Source: a phage. Taken from it: a stretch of 54,480 bases of DNA. A program made the translations under genes and the position numbers. Positions 4,281 to 33,261 of this stretch are shown here, one piece after another. Location of the stretch: the NCBI GenBank assembly GCA_018865545.1, contig GCA_018865545.1_3633.2, one strand, 5' to 3'. The first letter of the stretch is position 1; every line of letters starts with the position of its first letter. Under the pieces are notes generated by a model. The model worked only from the letters and a program-made list of their open reading frames with translations, was not told the origin of the DNA and did no database searches.

Positions 4281-4332
4281 CACATCAAGGCGATACACCG
4301 CCACCAACCAACCTAAAAAGGGGTGAATTAAT

Positions 4333-4956
4333 ATGAAAACCATCGTTAACGCTGAGAATGTATCTTTCGATAAGTTGAGCGACGCACAAAAAGAAAAAGC
4401 CATTGATCTTATTCGTGAGCGTGAAAGAGAAAGTAATAATGATTTCTTTGCTGATAGTGTCATTGAAGACTATAAGAATGACATTTTGCCAGAGTACGGG
4501 ATCGATGACGCGGTTATCTATTGGTCAGGATTCTGGTCGCAAGGCGACGGCGCATCAATCAGCACTGACCGCGTGGATATTGAAAAATTTTTAAGAAAAG
4601 TTAAATCTTTAACAAAATTCAGAGGGATCCGCAAACTATTTGATCTCGGTGAATATAGTCCGTTATATGCAAGCATTGAGCGGGATAATTACAGCCGCTA
4701 CCACCATGAAAATACTGTTTCCGGTTACGTTGACACTATGTATTGCGGCGATTTAACGGCAAAGCAGGAAGATTTGACCAATCAGCTTGAAAACTTGTTA
4801 ACTGAAACGATCCGCGATCTGTCTTGTAAACTTTACAGAGATTTAGAATCAGCCTACGATGACCAGTTTACAGATGAAGCCATCACAGAATCAATCGAAG
4901 CCAATGATTATCGTTTTGATATTGATGAAGATGGAAAAGTTTACGCTATCGCTTAA
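4333..4956 (+). CDS. hypothetical acidic early protein
   Basis: ORF track; AAAGGGG RBS; shares its first 8 codons (MKTIVNAE) with the gene at 9373. Confidence 0.6.
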   Translation: MKTIVNAENVSFDKLSDAQKEKAIDLIRERERESNNDFFADSVIEDYKNDILPEYGIDDAVIYWSGFWSQGDGASISTDRVDIEKFLRKVKSLTKFRGIRKLFDLGEYSPLYASIERDNYSRYHHENTVSGYVDTMYCGDLTAKQEDLTNQLENLLTETIRDLSCKLYRDLESAYDDQFTDEAITESIEANDYRFDIDEDGKVYAIA

Positions 4957-11750: not shown

Positions 11751-11756
11751 TAAACA

Positions 11757-11787
11757 GGCCGCATATTAGCGGCCTTTAATTTTTTCT
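11757..11787 (+). terminator. rho-independent terminator
   Basis: Hairpin AGGCCGC-ATATTA-GCGGCCT followed by TTAATTTTTT. Confidence 0.6.
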
Positions 11788-11847
11788 ATTGACAATATTA
11801 CACTAACCTTTAAAATGTTCTCTATTAAGTATCTTTAAAGGTGTAAC

Positions 11848-12027
11848 ATGCTCCAATCAATCATTGATGTTCTATCAGTCGCTAACAACGTGATGAACGT
11901 AATTACAATGATTAAACTTGTTGCGTGGTTTGTTTCCGGGGATTATCGCTATATTAAATGGCGCAAGCCAACCATAAAAGACGTAGTGAAGATCTCATTT
12001 GAAGCAATGACAGAATATTATCTATAA
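11848..12027 (+). CDS. small hypothetical protein (59 aa)
   Basis: Not in ORF track; AAAGGTG RBS before ATG11848; upstream TTGACA promoter-like. Confidence 0.3.
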   Translation: MLQSIIDVLSVANNVMNVITMIKLVAWFVSGDYRYIKWRKPTIKDVVKISFEAMTEYYL

Positions 12028-12088
12028 CGATTATTTTTTGTTGACATCCAAAAGATTTTTCAATACCATTGATCACATAAGGGCGGCA

Positions 12089-12316
12089 ATGATGCTGCCC
12101 ACAACTGAAAGAGAAATCACCATGGCGCTTAAAAAACTAACAAGTAATACACGTTGGGATGAAATCGGCGGGGAAGTATACATTTTCGCCCGTAAACCAG
12201 GTGATCAAAAATGGTCAAAGGCTTTTACTTGCCACCCTGCAACCATAGACCTGATAAAAAGGGAAGGTTTACGCGAAGCAGTAGCAAGAAATTTGCTGAT
12301 TCCTTATAAAAAATAG
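12089..12316 (+). CDS. hypothetical protein
   Basis: ORF track 12038..12316; start moved to ATG12089 behind AAGGGCGG; upstream TTGACA-17-TACCAT. Confidence 0.45.
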   Translation: MMLPTTEREITMALKKLTSNTRWDEIGGEVYIFARKPGDQKWSKAFTCHPATIDLIKREGLREAVARNLLIPYKK

Positions 12317-12382
12317 TTTGAAATTAATTTCATTATTGATAAAATCTTATATAAAACTTTAACCTAAAAGGGGTAAATTAAT

Positions 12383-12583
12383 ATGAAACGTTTTACTTAT
12401 GGTGTGGTTGGCGGTTCTGTTTCAAACCGTTTTTACAATACCGAGCGTGGTGCTAAAAATGCAGCTACCCGTGAATATGGCAATAGTGCAAATTTACAAG
12501 TTGGCTACATTAGCAAAATTAGCGGTATGTTTATTCCGGTTGCTCAACGCGGCATGTATTGCATAAACTGGATGCCAATGTAA
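12383..12583 (+). CDS. hypothetical protein
   Basis: ORF track; AAAAGGGGT RBS. Confidence 0.5.
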   Translation: MKRFTYGVVGGSVSNRFYNTERGAKNAATREYGNSANLQVGYISKISGMFIPVAQRGMYCINWMPM

Positions 12584-12598
12584 AAAGGAGTAATAAAA

Positions 12599-12790
12599 AT
12601 GGATGTACCACAAGTTAGAAAGGTATTAGCAGCGTTACGCTATCACAATCATAGCAAGGTGAAGAATGATCCTGATTATGTTGATTCCAGCTTGGAGGAA
12701 GACACCTTGCAAGCTATAAGCCATATGCAGGAATTGCTTAAGCGTATGACAGAGAAGAACAGATCTGATTATATAGGTGAAGAGATTTAA
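12599..12790 (+). CDS. hypothetical protein
   Basis: ORF track; AAAGGAG RBS. Confidence 0.5.
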   Translation: MDVPQVRKVLAALRYHNHSKVKNDPDYVDSSLEEDTLQAISHMQELLKRMTEKNRSDYIGEEI

Positions 12791-12821
12791 TCTCTTACAA
12801 CCGCACAAAGTAAAATTGTAC

Positions 12822-12850
12822 AAGGGGCGCATTAAGCGCCCTTTATTTTT
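12822..12850 (+). terminator. rho-independent terminator ending the plus-strand cluster
   Basis: Hairpin GGGGCGC-ATTA-AGCGCCC followed by TTTATTTTTG. Confidence 0.6.
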
Positions 12851-13235
12851 GCCCTAACAAGTATGATAAGTTTTATCTATCAAAACACCACACAGAAAAA
12901 AGTGAATAAAACGCGGTATCGAGCTAAACGAGGGCAGACAATACAACGGCAAGGCTGAACATTTAAGGCCGTTATAACGCGATTCAGGCCGCTTAAAATC
13001 GATCCCCACCACGAACAACCCCCACAAAATGACTAAAACGACACAACATGACCTAAATGATAACCATTATCAATAACATAAGCATTTTTATGCGTTTTTA
13101 GTGAATATCTATTTAAATGATAATGACTCTCAACAACAAACTAACACGACCGAAGCGATTTAATCGCCTACCACAAAATTAATCATTTGTAAAGAACAAT
13201 TTAAAAGCTGCGTAAGTGGCGCGACCGTAGGGAGC

Positions 13236-13460
13236 GACACAATAACGCAGTAGTAACCCCTCCCCTCACTCCTTACAGTCGCCCGGTATCGGGCTAGCGT
13301 TATTATGTCGCTACGCGCCAACGCGTTAACAATTTTGCAAAGAAGCCTGCTTTGCAGGTTAAGCGCATTGCGCTTAATCGCGTAGCGACTATGTGAAATT
13401 ATAACAGTTAAATTATTAATAAAATCTTGCAAAATTGTTAACCTACTGCGTTATTGTGTC
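13236..13460. repeat. nested and interleaved inverted repeats
   Basis: 18-bp perfect IR GACACAATAACGCAGTAG (13236-13253) / CTACTGCGTTATTGTGTC (13443-13460); 16-bp IR 13325-13340 / 13427-13442; 11-bp IR GTCGCTACGCG / CGCGTAGCGAC; palindrome TTAAGCGCATTGCGCTTAA. Confidence 0.7.
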
Positions 13461-13849
13461 CGGTACGGATTAGTTACGTATGTAACTAACAACTAACGTT
13501 GCTAAATTGTGTCCTGTATATAATTCGTTAAATTAACCAAATTAATCCCCGATTATTACGCAGTAAATCACCTGCTTTTAACCCTGTTAATGTGCCACGT
13601 AGTGATCTGCTATCTTGCCCAGGGATAACCGCATGGCATGCGGTTAAATGCTGTTAAGTGCCTGAAATGCCAGATCAATTTAGTCACTGCGTGATTATGA
13701 TTGCGACAATAATTTGCTTATGATTTGTTATGCTTTGTTATAATTTGCTATTTATTTGTTAAACACTCTTTTATCTTTCCTCTTTCATTTTTGTTATATT
13801 TGATTTGTTATCGTTTTCTTCCGTTTCATTTCGTTATTGAAAACAAGAA

Positions 13850-15250
13850 TTATTATCATTCATGTGCCTTAACAGGCTGGCAGGTCTGTTAGTGGTCTGG
13901 TTCTCTGTGTGGTCATGTGATGGCTGGCTTAGTAGCTTGGTTTTATTGTCTGGCCTGTTATTGTTAGCTTGCTTGTTGTTGTGTGGTGTATGTATCAGTT
14001 AGCTAGTGTATGATCTGGTGCGCATAACGTGTATTATGTTAAATCACTAAGCCCACAAATAAGGTGGCTTGTCAATAACAATAAGTGCTGTGTGCGGTAG
14101 TCTGGCCCATCAGTGCGCCCCTTTGTTGTGTGGTGCTCTCAGTGTGTGACCTGTCTGCTGTGTGCGCTGCGCCAAATCTCGAGCGGTTCTCGATCACAAT
14201 AGCTGTAAGATATTTTGTAAAGATTCGTAGTTTTTCTTGACACCCACAATCGTCCGTCTAACCCTTCAGAGATTTATCTGTGATTTTTACCCTTCAGAGA
14301 TAAATACAAACTATGAGCTACATCTGCCACAAGCATACCTGCCATGTCACATCACTAATCTTGCAAGGATATTTCTGTAAGTGAACCTGCACACAATGCA
14401 GCACGCGTCTTGTTGTGTGGGGAGGGTGGGGTAACAATCAGGAAGTGGTGTGGCTGTGATAACGTATTGGATAAAAACTCTGGCTGGCTTGTCGATGATA
14501 TTTGTGTGGGGAAATGCTGATGGGTAAGATATAAGACACTTGTCTCCGGCAGGGGTGGGGTGTGGAAAAGAAATGGGCCTGTCCGACCCATTGTGATATA
14601 GAAATGAAATGGCCATCTCACCATTGACCAGGTAAGCCAATATCAAGGCCAAATTCGTGGCACTCATCCCAGTCAAGACTTTGATTCCAGTTTGTAACTG
14701 TCCTCTCTGTGTGGTGGGTGTATGATGCTCTCTGTGACTGCTTTGGCATCTTTTTTGTCTGAGATTTCCCGAAAAGAGGTGTGTTGTCATTGAGTCTTCC
14801 GGCAGCCTTTTCACCCTTTTTGACTTGTCTCCCACAGGCATTCCACTGCTCCAGTGTCCTGTAACACATAAAATCATTCTCCTGTAATATCTGGTGTGAG
14901 GATAATGACAGATTGTATCAGATGCGTCAAGTCTGTTGACCAGAGTGTGTGGGGAGTGGTGTCGTTATAAAAAAAAATTTTAGGGAGCTTTCCATGACTT
15001 ATTCTGTGGCTTCAGCAAGGCCATAAACCCAGATGTGGCGGGGCTTTCAGCTATGTTGTGTGTTGATCGCAAACAAGGATAAAATAATCAATATAAATGC
15101 AGATAAATGTTGTTTTATTGTGTTTGTGTAACTGGGGTGTCGTGTCTTGATAGGTTATGACCTGTACATATTTTGTACAATTGTGTGGTGTGCAGAGTTT
15201 GGGTGGCAATTCCCCAGACGGGGCAGGGTAGGTTATGGTGGAGAGCAGGG
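13850..15250. repeat. GT-skewed non-coding region with recurring TGTGTGG(G) motifs and G-tracts
   Basis: Direct inspection: TGTGTGG-like motifs near 13975, 14125, 14412, 14446, 14503, 14556, 14707, 14945, 15181; GGGGAGGGTGGGG at 14419-14431. Confidence 0.5.
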
Positions 15251-30065: not shown

Positions 30066-30539
30066 TTAAATCTCCTCTTTCCACAAACCATCTTTTTTAA
30101 CCCACATTCTTTGGTTATCAGAACCCCTGAACCTTTTGGTTGTGGGCTTAGACATATCATACTTACCATCTATAACAATGTCAACAAGATTCTTAATTCT
30201 TTCAGGTATTTCTTCAAATAAATACCCTGTCCACAGCCAAATGTTTTTATCATCTCCGTAAACTGACCGTACCTTTAAAATAATCTTTATAACACCATCA
30301 ATATTTTGCGGATCAAGTGGTTCCCCACCTAAAATTGAGAGTCCTTTTATTTGCTTACGTGCCAAATCCTTTATAATTCTATCTAAGTGCTCATCTGTAA
30401 ACACTTCGCCATAGCTGTATGACCAGGCTCTTTGGTTAAAGCAGCCGCGACAACCATGACCACAACCGCTAACCCAGAGGGAGCATCGCACTCCCTCCCC
30501 GTTGATCATATCTGTTGGTTCATAACCGCAGAAATTCAT
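30066..30539 (-). CDS. nrdG: anaerobic ribonucleotide reductase activating protein
   Basis: Radical-SAM cluster motif CGHGCRGCFN; adjacent to nrdD exons. Confidence 0.8.
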   Translation of the reverse strand: MNFCGYEPTDMINGEGVRCSLWVSGCGHGCRGCFNQRAWSYSYGEVFTDEHLDRIIKDLARKQIKGLSILGGEPLDPQNIDGVIKIILKVRSVYGDDKNIWLWTGYLFEEIPERIKNLVDIVIDGKYDMSKPTTKRFRGSDNQRMWVKKDGLWKEEI

Positions 30540-30940
30540 GTATGTTTCACTCTCTCCACAACTTCTTGCATCTTACCCTTGTTATAAGGACGGCTGTTTG
30601 GAGCAGACAAATATCCAGACACACGTCTAATCACACTTATTGTTTCTTCATCATGATTGCCACAAGAAGGACACTCGAACCCCTTAGCTGTGGCCTTAAA
30701 TTCACCAGAGAAACCACACTCGTGACACCTATCTACAGGTTGATTTATACCAAAATAAGGGATGTATTCATATCCATAATCCACTAAGGCTTCCAATGCT
30801 TGCATGTTGTTTTTTAGATTAGGAACTTCCACATAACCTATGTTGCCACCATTACTTATCTCAGCAAACCCACATTCATAATCCCATTTGAAGAATGGAT
30901 CAGACGTTTTCCACACTGGTTGATGGAACGAGTTTGTCAA
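30536..30940 (-). CDS. nrdD: anaerobic ribonucleoside-triphosphate reductase, exon 3 (glycyl-radical C-terminus)
   Basis: Zn-ribbon CHECGFSGEF..CPSCGN and glycyl radical motif RRVSGYL; 5' boundary approximate (frame open upstream to about 30955). Confidence 0.75.
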   Translation of the reverse strand: MTNSFHQPVWKTSDPFFKWDYECGFAEISNGGNIGYVEVPNLKNNMQALEALVDYGYEYIPYFGINQPVDRCHECGFSGEFKATAKGFECPSCGNHDEETISVIRRVSGYLSAPNSRPYNKGKMQEVVERVKHT

Positions 30941-31300
30941 ATAATCTCTTTCAATTAACCCAGGATATGCTTCTTTAAGTTTTGTGGCAAATTTATAACA
31001 CAGAGATTCTGCCGATGTACCGCTGCTTTCGCAGTATTTTTACGGACTAGACTATATCACGATCTTGTGACCACTCACAAGACCCTCCACATTTCGCCAT
31101 TCAAGGCTACTCTACTCGCTTCTTCACATCAGGTGAGGCTGATGCTATGCTTTCGATAGTCGTTAGAGACAATTTCTTGCCTACGGGGTTAGCTCTGCCC
31201 CAACAGGGTTTAGCCTTTCTTAACAGCTTATTGTTTATTCAGCTATGCCCGTTTAGTGGAGTTATTCGACAACCATCACTGGTTGAAGGCCCAATTGTGT
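30941..31300 (-). ncRNA. group I intron (ORF-less) in nrdD, boundaries approximate
   Basis: Separates exon 2 from exon 3; on the coding strand contains AACGACTATCGAAAG (P7 5'-like) and AAGATCGTGATATAGTCTAGTCC (P7 3'/P9.0-like). Confidence 0.55.
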
Positions 31301-32391
31301 CTAGGCGTGCCATATAAGCTAAATGCTAAACCACTTCGCTCTTTAAAATCAGCACAAATATCCTTCATGTATTTCAAGATATTCATTGCCATCTCTTTAC
31401 GAACTGGTTCGCCATACAAAATTTCAACTGCTTCATAAAGACCCACATAGCCAATACTGATTGATGCGTAGCCATTAAAGAAGAGTTTACTAATCTTTTC
31501 ATCAGGTCCAAGTCGTGCAATAGCCCCTTCCATAAACATTGTAGGGTTCTGGGAGGCTTTTACATCCATCAATCTACCGACTCTAACCATATGCGCTTTA
31601 TATGCCATTTCCATGTGCTTTTCAAGCAATTCGGTAAACAGAGTTTTCTTAGATTTTGCTTCTGCTGCAATCATAGGCAAGTTTAGAGAGACAACACCAA
31701 GATTGAATCTACCGTCATATTTCTCACCATGTTCTGTTGCATAATAAGATAAGAAACTTCTACAGCCCATGCTTGTAACACGCCCGTCTGAAGAACCTGT
31801 TACCTTTTTATTCAACGGGACAGATATGAAATCTGGATAAATCCTTTCAACACAACACTCCATAGCTAATTGCTTTAAGTCGTAGTTTGGATCGCCAGGC
31901 TTCATGTTTACCCCATCTTCCAAGAAGAAGATAACTTTTGGAAAAACAGGTGTGACTTTATCTTTGCCAAGTCCGTTCTTGTGAACAAGAAGATAATTCT
32001 TTGTAATCATTCTCCCAAAATAGGAAGTATCAAGCCCAAGGCTCAAGGTAATAAATGGGCATTGACCGTTAGCACTCATCAAGGTATTTACCTGATAAAG
32101 CAATGTCTGCATAGCATCGTAAACATCTTTTTCCGTCATCTGCATAGCTACACCTTCTGGGTCTGGCAGCCATTGCTCCTGACAAAATTTTAGATTTTTA
32201 TCGTAACTTGCCTTGGCATATTGTTTTAATCCTTCGTCAATATGAGTGTATGACTGACCACCATACTGTGCCGAAGAAACTGCTTGGGATATCTGGCTAA
32301 GAATCGTACAGGCGACACCTATTGATTTTGGTTTTTCTATTTTTGCGTTGCCAATTTTAAAACCGTTCTCCAACATACCCCTGTAATCCAC
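31276..32391 (-). CDS. nrdD: anaerobic ribonucleoside-triphosphate reductase, exon 2
   Basis: Central NrdD-like body ending near FSLYGTP; the last 8 codons and stop (RHNWAFNQ*) are probably intron read-through. Confidence 0.8.
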   Translation of the reverse strand: MDYRGMLENGFKIGNAKIEKPKSIGVACTILSQISQAVSSAQYGGQSYTHIDEGLKQYAKASYDKNLKFCQEQWLPDPEGVAMQMTEKDVYDAMQTLLYQVNTLMSANGQCPFITLSLGLDTSYFGRMITKNYLLVHKNGLGKDKVTPVFPKVIFFLEDGVNMKPGDPNYDLKQLAMECCVERIYPDFISVPLNKKVTGSSDGRVTSMGCRSFLSYYATEHGEKYDGRFNLGVVSLNLPMIAAEAKSKKTLFTELLEKHMEMAYKAHMVRVGRLMDVKASQNPTMFMEGAIARLGPDEKISKLFFNGYASISIGYVGLYEAVEILYGEPVRKEMAMNILKYMKDICADFKERSGLAFSLYGTPRHNWAFNQ

Positions 32392-32757
32392 AAGACTACA
32401 GTTGAAGAGCGGACTTATTAGGTAATCTAAATCCTTGATTTTCCTACATTTTTGCAGGCAATGACTATATCATAATCTCGAAAGAGATTCTCTGCTTTTC
32501 AACTGGTAGCGTCTCCAGCTTACTCCCGAAGGATAGTCGATACACATAACGAAGTCTCACTCAGAATTATTATCTTCACGGAATGATACTTCGTCTTAGC
32601 ACGGTATTACCTTGCCCCTTAGCCGAAGGGTTTAGGCTCCCTTACTCATAATGCAGTCACCTGCTTCTGAACCGTTAGCACAGTTTTTACTGCACACCGC
32701 TTTGCAATCAGCGTTAACAGAGTTATTCAATACTGATCACTCAGTAAGGCCACGATG
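32392..32757 (-). ncRNA. group I intron (ORF-less) in nrdD, boundaries approximate
   Basis: Separates ATP-cone exon from exon 2; coding strand contains GTATCGACTATCC and GATTATGATATAGTC, the same GATATAGTC block as the second intron. Confidence 0.55.
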
Positions 32758-33261
32758 TTATTCATGGATATGACCATACCCATTTGTATGCCATTCAGCT
32801 AATTCTTTTGGTAGAATTTGAGTTAGTGAAACGTGCTTGCTAAGGATACCAGCGAGAAGATCACGATGGCTACTAACCACCCCACTTGGTTTATTAGCGT
32901 TTTCTTTAGTAAATTCATCGGCAGTTTGTTCTAAGAATCCCGTAATATCTGCAAACAGCTTCCCTTTACATTCCCTAACGTTATCACGCGTTTTACGATA
33001 TTCAATATAAACCCGTGCTGCATTTTTGAGGTCAAGATCCATTAGTGAATCTTCCACAATGCGGTGAATATCACAAACAGCCACTTTCTCTTGTGGTGGT
33101 TCTGATTTTTCCAGAGTTCCCCAGACTTGCTCGCCAACTGCACATGCCAGAGGATATGATTTCTCACCATAACCAGCAGCAATCAGAGCAGCTTCTGCCG
33201 CTCTAATAACTTTCACACCATCATAATCTTCTTCACGCCCATCACGTTTAACAACTTTCAT
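32758..33261 (-). CDS. nrdD: anaerobic ribonucleoside-triphosphate reductase, exon 1 (ATP-cone)
   Basis: MKVVKRDGREEDYDGVKVIRA ATP-cone start; ends GYGHIHE just before the intron. Confidence 0.75.
   Translation of the reverse strand: MKVVKRDGREEDYDGVKVIRAAEAALIAAGYGEKSYPLACAVGEQVWGTLEKSEPPQEKVAVCDIHRIVEDSLMDLDLKNAARVYIEYRKTRDNVRECKGKLFADITGFLEQTADEFTKENANKPSGVVSSHRDLLAGILSKHVSLTQILPKELAEWHTNGYGHIHE

Follow-up and report, generated by a model that had tools for sequence, protein, structure and literature searches.

Two probable group I introns without open reading frames in nrdD, the anaerobic ribonucleotide reductase gene of a Vequintavirinae-like coliphage

Introduction

Group I introns in phage ribonucleotide reductase (RNR) genes are textbook elements. 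Among the RNR genes nrdD is the one most often split in phages, and a single gene may hold several group I introns, some of them without an open reading frame (ORF), as in nrdE of Twort, which has two introns, and nrdE of Brochothrix phage A9 (PMC3653736). The terL gene of rV5 also has introns (PMC3606486), and the homing of ORF-less introns in trans, or collaboratively, has been reviewed (PMC3984707). Here a 54,480-nucleotide (nt) stretch of phage DNA (assembly GCA_018865545.1, contig GCA_018865545.1_3633.2), referred to below as the window, is analysed, in which nrdD lies on the minus strand and is very likely one gene, transcribed as a single pre-mRNA and containing two group I introns of the phage IA2 type, neither of them with an ORF. 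By its sequence the source phage appears to be an rV5-like or Vequintavirinae-like coliphage.

The introns of the window resemble the group IA2 introns of T4 (td, nrdB and nrdD/sunY) in occupying a host gene of nucleotide metabolism, which in T4 includes nrdD itself, in having a stop codon shortly after the 5′ splice site and in the layout of the core, P7 - P7.1 - AGUAGG - P7.2 - GAAA - P3′ - P8 - P7′ (GACUAUCC...GAUAUAGUC). In keeping with this the 3′ domains of both introns align block by block with the cores of the T4 td, nrdD and nrdB introns. The T4 nrdD intron lies at about residues 276-279 (in the numbering of the window NrdD) and carries I-TevII, whereas the window introns lie at residues 166/167 (site 1) and 543/544 (site 2) and are ORF-less, and intron 1 has, between P3 and P4, two hairpins with no counterpart in the T4 introns. 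In phi92, TH18 and related Stephanstirmvirinae and Vequintavirinae the same gene, nrdD, holds group I introns that are either ORF-less or endonuclease-carrying. The phi92 nrdD intron ('spliced variant', NC_023693) resembles the T4 nrdD intron in sequence and is inserted at ..SMG^CRSF.. (389/390; ^ marks a junction), a site that is empty in the window. The introns of Twort and Brochothrix A9 nrdE (class Ib) and of rV5 terL, with mostly Gram-positive hosts, differ from those of the window in gene and host, the latter residing in the class III gene nrdD of a coliphage. The window introns belong to a well-known type of phage element, and both of their sites differ from the T4 and phi92 nrdD sites.

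The nrdD exons and their reading frame

The nrdD gene (33261-30536) is distributed over three ORFs, 33261-32758 (167 aa), 32391-31276 (371 aa) and 30940-30536 (134 aa). An earlier note on this DNA had recognised pieces of nrdD in these three minus-strand ORFs, in agreement with the Pfam assignment of the spliced protein to ATP-cone (residues 1-93, exon 1, 47 bits), NRDD (120-700, all exons, 548 bits) and Gly_radical (579-681, exon 3, 80 bits). The ORF-to-ORF gaps, put at about 360 nt in the note, measure 366 and 335 nt, and the inserts proper are shorter, at 330 nt (32763-32434) and 290 nt (31302-31013), because the exons extend past the mechanical ORF starts. Removal of both inserts in silico yields a frame of 2106 nt encoding a NrdD of 701 aa, with predicted spliced junctions ...CAUAUCCAU^GAUUUAGAU... 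between exons 1 and 2 and ...GGCACGCCU^GCAGAAUCU... between exons 2 and 3, corresponding to the residues GYGHIH^DLDYL at site 1 and SLYGTP^AESLCY at site 2. The uninterrupted NrdD of Salmonella phage NINP13076 is equal in length and 79% identical, aligning without a gap across both junctions, as does the uninterrupted NrdD of phage PaulScherrer. The hallmarks of a class III enzyme are all present, comprising the ATP-cone, NRDD and glycyl-radical domains, a C-terminal Zn-ribbon and an adjacent nrdG. There is no frameshift or stop in the exons and the codon differences between alleles are mostly synonymous (synonymous to non-synonymous 71:15 and 56:17 over all exons), indicating that the spliced NrdD is under purifying selection.

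Near-identical phages supply alleles in which one or other insert is missing. Here the window shares 96% identity with Escherichia phage vB_EcoM_TH18 (Vequintavirinae; L001) and with three 54-kb partial records from that group. TH18 is without the 330 nt of intron 1, the absence being clean apart from an ambiguity of 2 nt. TH18 has intron 2 at 98.6% identity together with a different insert of 252 nt (TH18 4306-4557) at residue 389/390. The metagenome contig OVXI01000030.1 (L087), 97% identical to the window over 11.9 kb, has an empty site 2, ...GGCACGCCA^GCAGAATC..., keeps intron 1 (98.5%) and has inserts at 289/290 and 389/390 as well, with intron 1 also found at the same site in a further relative, L012 (about 90%). 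Once their differing inserts are removed the alleles of the window, TH18 and L087 each give a frame of 2106 nt. The boundaries are fixed by the intron-less alleles, with 2 nt of uncertainty at site 1 (TH18) and with none at site 2 (L087). At site 2 the flanking exon base differs: every intron-bearing allele has CCU as the Pro codon ahead of intron 2, and the allele without the intron has CCA (31303; L087 junction). The U of this CCU is U31303, a partner in the U.G pair of intron 2 P1. Both inserts terminate in a G directly before the 3′ exon (G32434 and G31013).

Group I features of the two inserts

The blocks GACTATC and GATATAGTC, which the earlier note had reported in both gaps in the order expected for P7, were confirmed on the minus strand at 32538-32532 and 31161-31155 (GACTATC) and at 32471-32463 and 31058-31050 (GATATAGTC), such that each insert reads 5′-GACTATC...GATATAGTC-3′. 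The second block occurs only twice in the window, once per insert, against 0.26 copies expected and with one of 100 shuffles reaching two, while GACTATC by itself is ordinary there (6 found, 4.3 expected). The conserved sequences forming P7 in group I cores (..GACUA.. / ..GAUAUAGUC) are matched in both inserts by GACUAUC and GAUAUAGUC, and those of intron 1 were aligned to the P7 strands of the Rfam model RF00028.

The note had named failure of the gaps to fold into P1-P9 as a refutation, and P1-P9 can be assigned in both inserts. Each insert has a U.G pair in P1 at the 5′ splice site, a terminal G, a P3/P7 pseudoknot, P4-P6, P8 and P9, and in each P7.1 and P7.2 lie between the 5′ strand of P7 and the 3′ strand of P3, a feature of subgroup IA2. 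Translation would meet an in-frame stop two codons into intron 1 and after eight codons of intron 2. No ORF longer than 32 aa lies within either insert on either strand, in agreement with the note, which had described both introns as lacking a homing endonuclease ORF.

Structure and family of intron 1

In intron 1, P3 encloses P4, P5, P5a/b, P6, the 5′ strand of P7, P7.1 and P7.2 (Table 1). P4 is formed by ACGGU and ACCGU (32675-32671 with 32605-32601), followed by P5 with a GNRA loop and a long P6 (32594-32583 with 32560-32549). Towards the 3′ end P7.1 reads CC-UUCG-GG (32532-32525) and P7.2 CUGG/CCAG (32518-32515 with 32506-32503), with P8 AAUCUC/GAGAUU (32489-32484 with 32479-32474) and P9 CCUGC/GUAGG at 32458-32443; P2 is also present. 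Read directly from the sequence, the guide could also form P10 through its AUC, which is complementary to GAU, the first three nt of exon 2. The minimum free energy (MFE) of intron 1 has z = -2.55 against shuffles, and unconstrained MFE folding recovered P2, P3, P4, P5, P6, P7.1, P7.2, P8 and P9.

The two hairpins between P3 and P4, CGCU/AGCG (32713-32710 with 32701-32698) and GUGCAGU/ACUGUGC (32695-32689 with 32684-32678), are non-canonical for group I introns. A literature search for a named 'P3.1/P3.2' element gave nothing relevant except the 'noncanonical insertion between P3 and P4' of yeast aI5beta (PMC2396411).

Intron 1 is the rarer of the two. Its close homologues, inserted at the same codon junction, were found only in L087 and in the IMG/VR contig 3300045988_157310. 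Pairing is kept by the few substitutions in close homologues: C-G replaces U-A in the second hairpin (L012), in P9 G.U is replaced by G-C and by A-U/U.G, and P8 is longer. An alternative P3 (AACUG/CAGUU) was rejected as the L012 substitutions break it. The helices were tabulated for six sequences (the window, L087, L012, Vibrio phage phi 3, the 5′ half of L088 and the nepoznato terL intron). All helices form in the five of these other than L088, and in the last three, L088 being represented by its 5′ half only, they are formed by other sequences. A BLAST search of 50,697 phage records with intron 1 returned core matches of 38-90 nt and no full-length homologue.

A wider family is marked by the J6/7-P7 word GTGTATCGACTATCC, which has 121 matches in IMG/VR with the P7 3′ motif downstream in 80. 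Among the ORF-less members both hairpins recur before UAACGG with differing sequences; of 14 unconstrained folds, all contain the second hairpin and 10 the first. Twin hairpins of other sequence occupy the same positions in L088, in Vibrio phage phi 3 and in members of the family from IMG/VR. P3 of the family was defined by position, taking the heptanucleotides that precede AAC and follow YYGRAR, and so defined was 96% paired (22 sequences, 10 variants) against 50-61% when slid. Positional definitions were used in place of MAFFT alignments, which misplaced P3 3′, P3.2 and P4. Free searching for the best 7-mer complement to the P3 5′ strand was unspecific, shuffled strands doing equally well in 25-95% of trials.

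Many introns of this family lie at a ..MG^CR(S/A/T).. junction (IMG/VR L089, L095, L108, L123, L130, L143, L148, L203 and others). Those ..MG^CR.. junctions with the 3′ exon CRSFL are at the catalytic-cysteine site of NrdD, which is therefore a recurrent target.

Structure and lineage of intron 2

Intron 2 has a P2 of CAACCA-GUGA-UGGUUG and a P3 enclosing P4, P5, P5a/b, P6, the 5′ strand of P7, P7.1 (31144-31127) and P7.2 (31107-31096). P4 pairs CGGG with CCCG (31251-31248 with 31187-31184), P5 is a hairpin with a P5a/P5b arm, P8 is formed by UCUUGUGA/UCACAAGA at 31082-31063 and P9/P9a, with a GAAA loop, lies at 31045-31020. Its MFE has z = -2.49 against shuffles, and P2, P3, P4, P5, P6, P7.1, P7.2 and P8 were recovered by unconstrained MFE folding.

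The 21-nt P7/P7.1 motif of intron 2 matched 68 IMG/VR stretches, nearly all of them with ATATAGTC 106-162 nt downstream. Eight homologues, drawn from these matches or closely related to them, are inserted at the same YxTP^AE junction of NrdD, in proteins as little as 28-45% identical to the window NrdD. Four IMG/VR relatives (L051, L063, L077 and the ORF-less L037) share the insertion point, the ribozyme with covarying P1-P9 and the 21-nt motif. L051, L063 and L077 differ from the window in carrying an ORF of 201 aa (HNH_3 and NUMOD1) in the P6 loop, where the window has a 5-bp stem with a GAAA loop, GGCAA-GAAA-UUGUC (31181-31168). The 5′ half of intron 2 resembles sequences interrupting the DNA polymerase and large-terminase genes of Herelleviridae phages.

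Covariation was assessed on the eight homologues, aligned after long insertions in the P6 loop (the HNH ORF in three, about 80 nt of non-coding sequence in L010) had been replaced by GAAA. The structure was paired in 91% of pair cells against 32-44% with the partners slid, and both sides had changed in 32 of 69 pairs against 6-11 when slid. On four of five measures none of 500 shuffles reached the observed value; on the fifth, further standard pair types, 460 of 500 did so (50 observed, 53.6 in shuffles). P3 was paired in 100% of cells with five of its six pairs changed on both sides, and five of the six pairs of P2 covary. The P1 guide covaries with the exon codon (GCCU/GGGC, ACACCU/GGGUGU, GCCCU/GGGGC) around a U.G pair that is invariant in all eight.

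The P6 insertion of L010 (about 4700-4830) contains GGAGG followed by an ATG, seven codons and a stop, and is possibly what is left of an endonuclease ORF.

Weight of the evidence and alternative explanations

The proposal of the earlier note that two group I introns split nrdD is supported by the gapless junctions, the intron-less alleles, the P1-P9 helices and the covariation, and both inserts can be regarded with high confidence as splicing-competent. Several observations weigh against it. The covariance-model search that the note had suggested did not recover either intron, with no Rfam match at gathering thresholds over the whole window and, in E-value mode over 3 kb, RF00028 giving 17.6 bits (E 0.24) for intron 1 and no match for intron 2 against a gathering score of 50. 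P7 and P4 are unchanging in the sets used and therefore provide no covariation evidence, intron 2 has no clear P10, and intron 1 has only three close homologues, with wider support for its fold coming from positional definitions made here and not from a structure-aware alignment. Matches to mir-147 and TCL6 in E-value mode were dismissed as chance.

The T4 td and nrdB introns are proven self-splicing elements. As controls the T4 nrdD intron scored 105 bits with RF00028 and that of phi92 nrdD 70.6, with T4 nrdB falling below threshold at 35.7 and T4 td being missed. The sensitivity of the model is uneven for phage IA2 introns and, because it misses T4 td and places T4 nrdB below threshold, the failure in the window was taken as a limit of the model.

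The low Rfam scores and the homing endonuclease gene that both introns have lost or never had would also suit introns that have decayed and lost the ability to splice, in which case nrdD would be a pseudogene. This is improbable, as all core helices are intact and the introns are 98.5-98.6% identical to the copies in relatives whose exons differ by about 4%. The exons have moreover stayed free of frameshifts and stops with synonymous changes exceeding non-synonymous about four-fold, and nrdG appears still to be translationally coupled.

Still less probable is a split gene without splicing, in which the three ORFs would be translated separately and assemble into an active reductase. Working split RNR genes of this kind exist, for example nrdA of Aeromonas phage Aeh1, which is split by mobE (PMC3653736), and the related records ON075799, OK136181, OK181860 and OK181862 have their nrdD pieces annotated as two to four separate 'large subunit' coding sequences (CDS) with no join. 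In the window only exon 1 has a ribosome-binding-like site, GGGGGAA before its ATG at 33261, with the true boundaries of exons 2 and 3 having neither ribosome-binding site nor start. The mechanical starts of the second and third pieces, GTG 32391 and TTG 30940, also lack a ribosome-binding site and would remove conserved residues, 14 and 24 respectively and with DLDYLISPLFNC and AESLCY among them, which speaks against three separate polypeptides, as do the covarying group I cores of the inserts and their precise absence from close relatives. Other elements are very improbable, since inteins, although found in phage RNR genes (PMC3653736), are ruled out by the in-frame stops 2 and 8 codons into the inserts, a group II intron by the size of 290-330 nt with no reverse transcriptase ORF and no group II Rfam match, and a bypass of the T4 gene 60 type by in-frame stops and inserts far longer than 50 nt, with a small transposon grouped among these very improbable elements.

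If nrdD is spliced as proposed, a single pre-mRNA would be transcribed, in which ribosomes would halt 2 or 8 codons inside the respective intron. Each intron would fold into the P3-P8, P4-P6 and P7 core with P7 binding exogenous guanosine. Two guanosine-initiated transesterifications would cut after the U of the P1 U.G pair (U32764 and U31303) and ligate the exons after the terminal G (G32434 and G31013), giving an mRNA for the 701-aa NrdD that the nrdG product would activate. The length of exon 2, 1131 nt, is a multiple of three, such that skipping it would fuse the ATP-cone to the glycyl-radical domain in frame; that exon 2 is ever skipped is pure speculation.

The nrdD intron mosaic and the arrival of the introns

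Across this phage group nrdD is an intron mosaic with insertions at residues 166/167, 224, 289/290, 389/390 and 543/544. Each genome (TH18, L087 and L011-L013) holds its own subset, with five in L012 (800-5286), where the insertion at residue 224, found in L012 only, is 1.2 kb long; that at 389/390, ..SMG^CRSF.., lies before the catalytic Cys codon. Presence and absence among these alleles suggest that both window introns are mobile, although the window yielded no endonuclease for either of the two sites.

Around site 1 the window differs from the intron-less TH18 at 15 of 60 positions (nt 481-540 of the spliced CDS; about 32781-32386) against about 2-3 per 60 nt elsewhere, a divergent patch that looks like an exon co-conversion tract. 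No comparable patch was seen at 543/544 between the window and L087. The site mosaic, the divergent patch at site 1 and the HNH-carrying relatives at 543/544 are together consistent with homing accompanied by co-conversion, the endonuclease having afterwards been lost or being supplied in trans. As the most likely route, the introns would have entered the conserved nrdD by homing through endonucleases acting in trans or since lost. The window shares with reviewed systems of trans or collaborative homing its ORF-less introns, polymorphic among close relatives, and the divergent exon tract near site 1 (PMC3984707).

A broader proposal is put forward tentatively and is doubtful in its joint form. 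It would make intron 1 the representative of an undescribed phage IA2 subclass, defined by a two-hairpin module (GAAC-hairpin-GGUGU-hairpin-C-UAACGG) before a short J3/4 and conserved in all ORF-less members examined of a family with at least 80 IMG/VR matches, and would have four to six nrdD sites shuffled among near-identical coliphages by trans-acting endonucleases or by plain recombination during co-infection.

Feature coordinates and neighbouring genes

Table 1. Coordinates of nrdD exons, predicted introns and their structural elements, and nrdG in the window.
Feature	Position	Strand	Remarks
nrdD exon 1	32764..33261	-	498 nt, residues 1-166 (ATP-cone and start of NRDD domain)
Intron 1 (predicted)	32434..32763	-	330 nt, group I (IA2-like), no ORF; 5′ splice site after U32764, terminal G32434
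Intron 1 P1	32750..32767	-	CCAU^GA (32767-32762) with internal guide UCGUGG (32755-32750); U.G at splice site
Intron 1 P3	32490..32722	-	CUCUGUU (32722-32716) with AGCAGAG (32496-32490)
Intron 1 twin hairpins between P3 and P4	32678..32713	-	followed by UAA and P4
Intron 1 catalytic core, 3′ domain	32463..32538	-	P7 GACUAU (32538-32533) with AUAGUC (32468-32463)
nrdD exon 2	31303..32433	-	1131 nt, residues 167-543, begins DLDYLISPLFNC, contains MGCRSF motif
Intron 2 (predicted)	31013..31302	-	290 nt, group I (IA2-like), no ORF; 5′ splice site after U31303, terminal G31013
Intron 2 P1	31289..31306	-	GCCU^A (31306-31302) with UGGGC (31293-31289); U.G at splice site
Intron 2 P3	31085..31261	-	CUCCAC (31261-31256) with GUGGAG (31090-31085)
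Intron 2 P7	31050..31161	-	GACUAU (31161-31156) with AUAGUC (31055-31050)
nrdD exon 3	30536..31012	-	477 nt, residues 544-701 (glycyl-radical domain and Zn-ribbon)
nrdG	30066..30539	-	radical-SAM activating enzyme of class III reductase; directly downstream of nrdD

On the minus strand nrdD is preceded by nrdA, nrdB and a glutaredoxin-like gene, in that order, and followed by nrdG. The nrdG product matches Fer4_12 and Radical_SAM in Pfam, and the nrdD stop overlaps the nrdG start in ATGA at 30539-30536, which points to coupled translation of reductase and activase. Elsewhere in the window, 11751-14346 is a 2.6-kb stretch without an ORF of at least 100 aa and without tRNA genes, and is probably a cluster of small early genes.

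Implications

For annotation, the three separate 'class III reductase large subunit' CDS of the relatives should be joined into one NrdD of 701 aa. Knowledge of group I introns as such is unchanged by the nrdD case. What these phages offer is a natural series, with genomes 96-97% identical in which the nrdD intron sites, at least four in number, are occupied in differing combinations, and with intron-less as well as intron-bearing alleles for both sites of the window, and the lineage is therefore convenient for studying how ORF-less introns spread.

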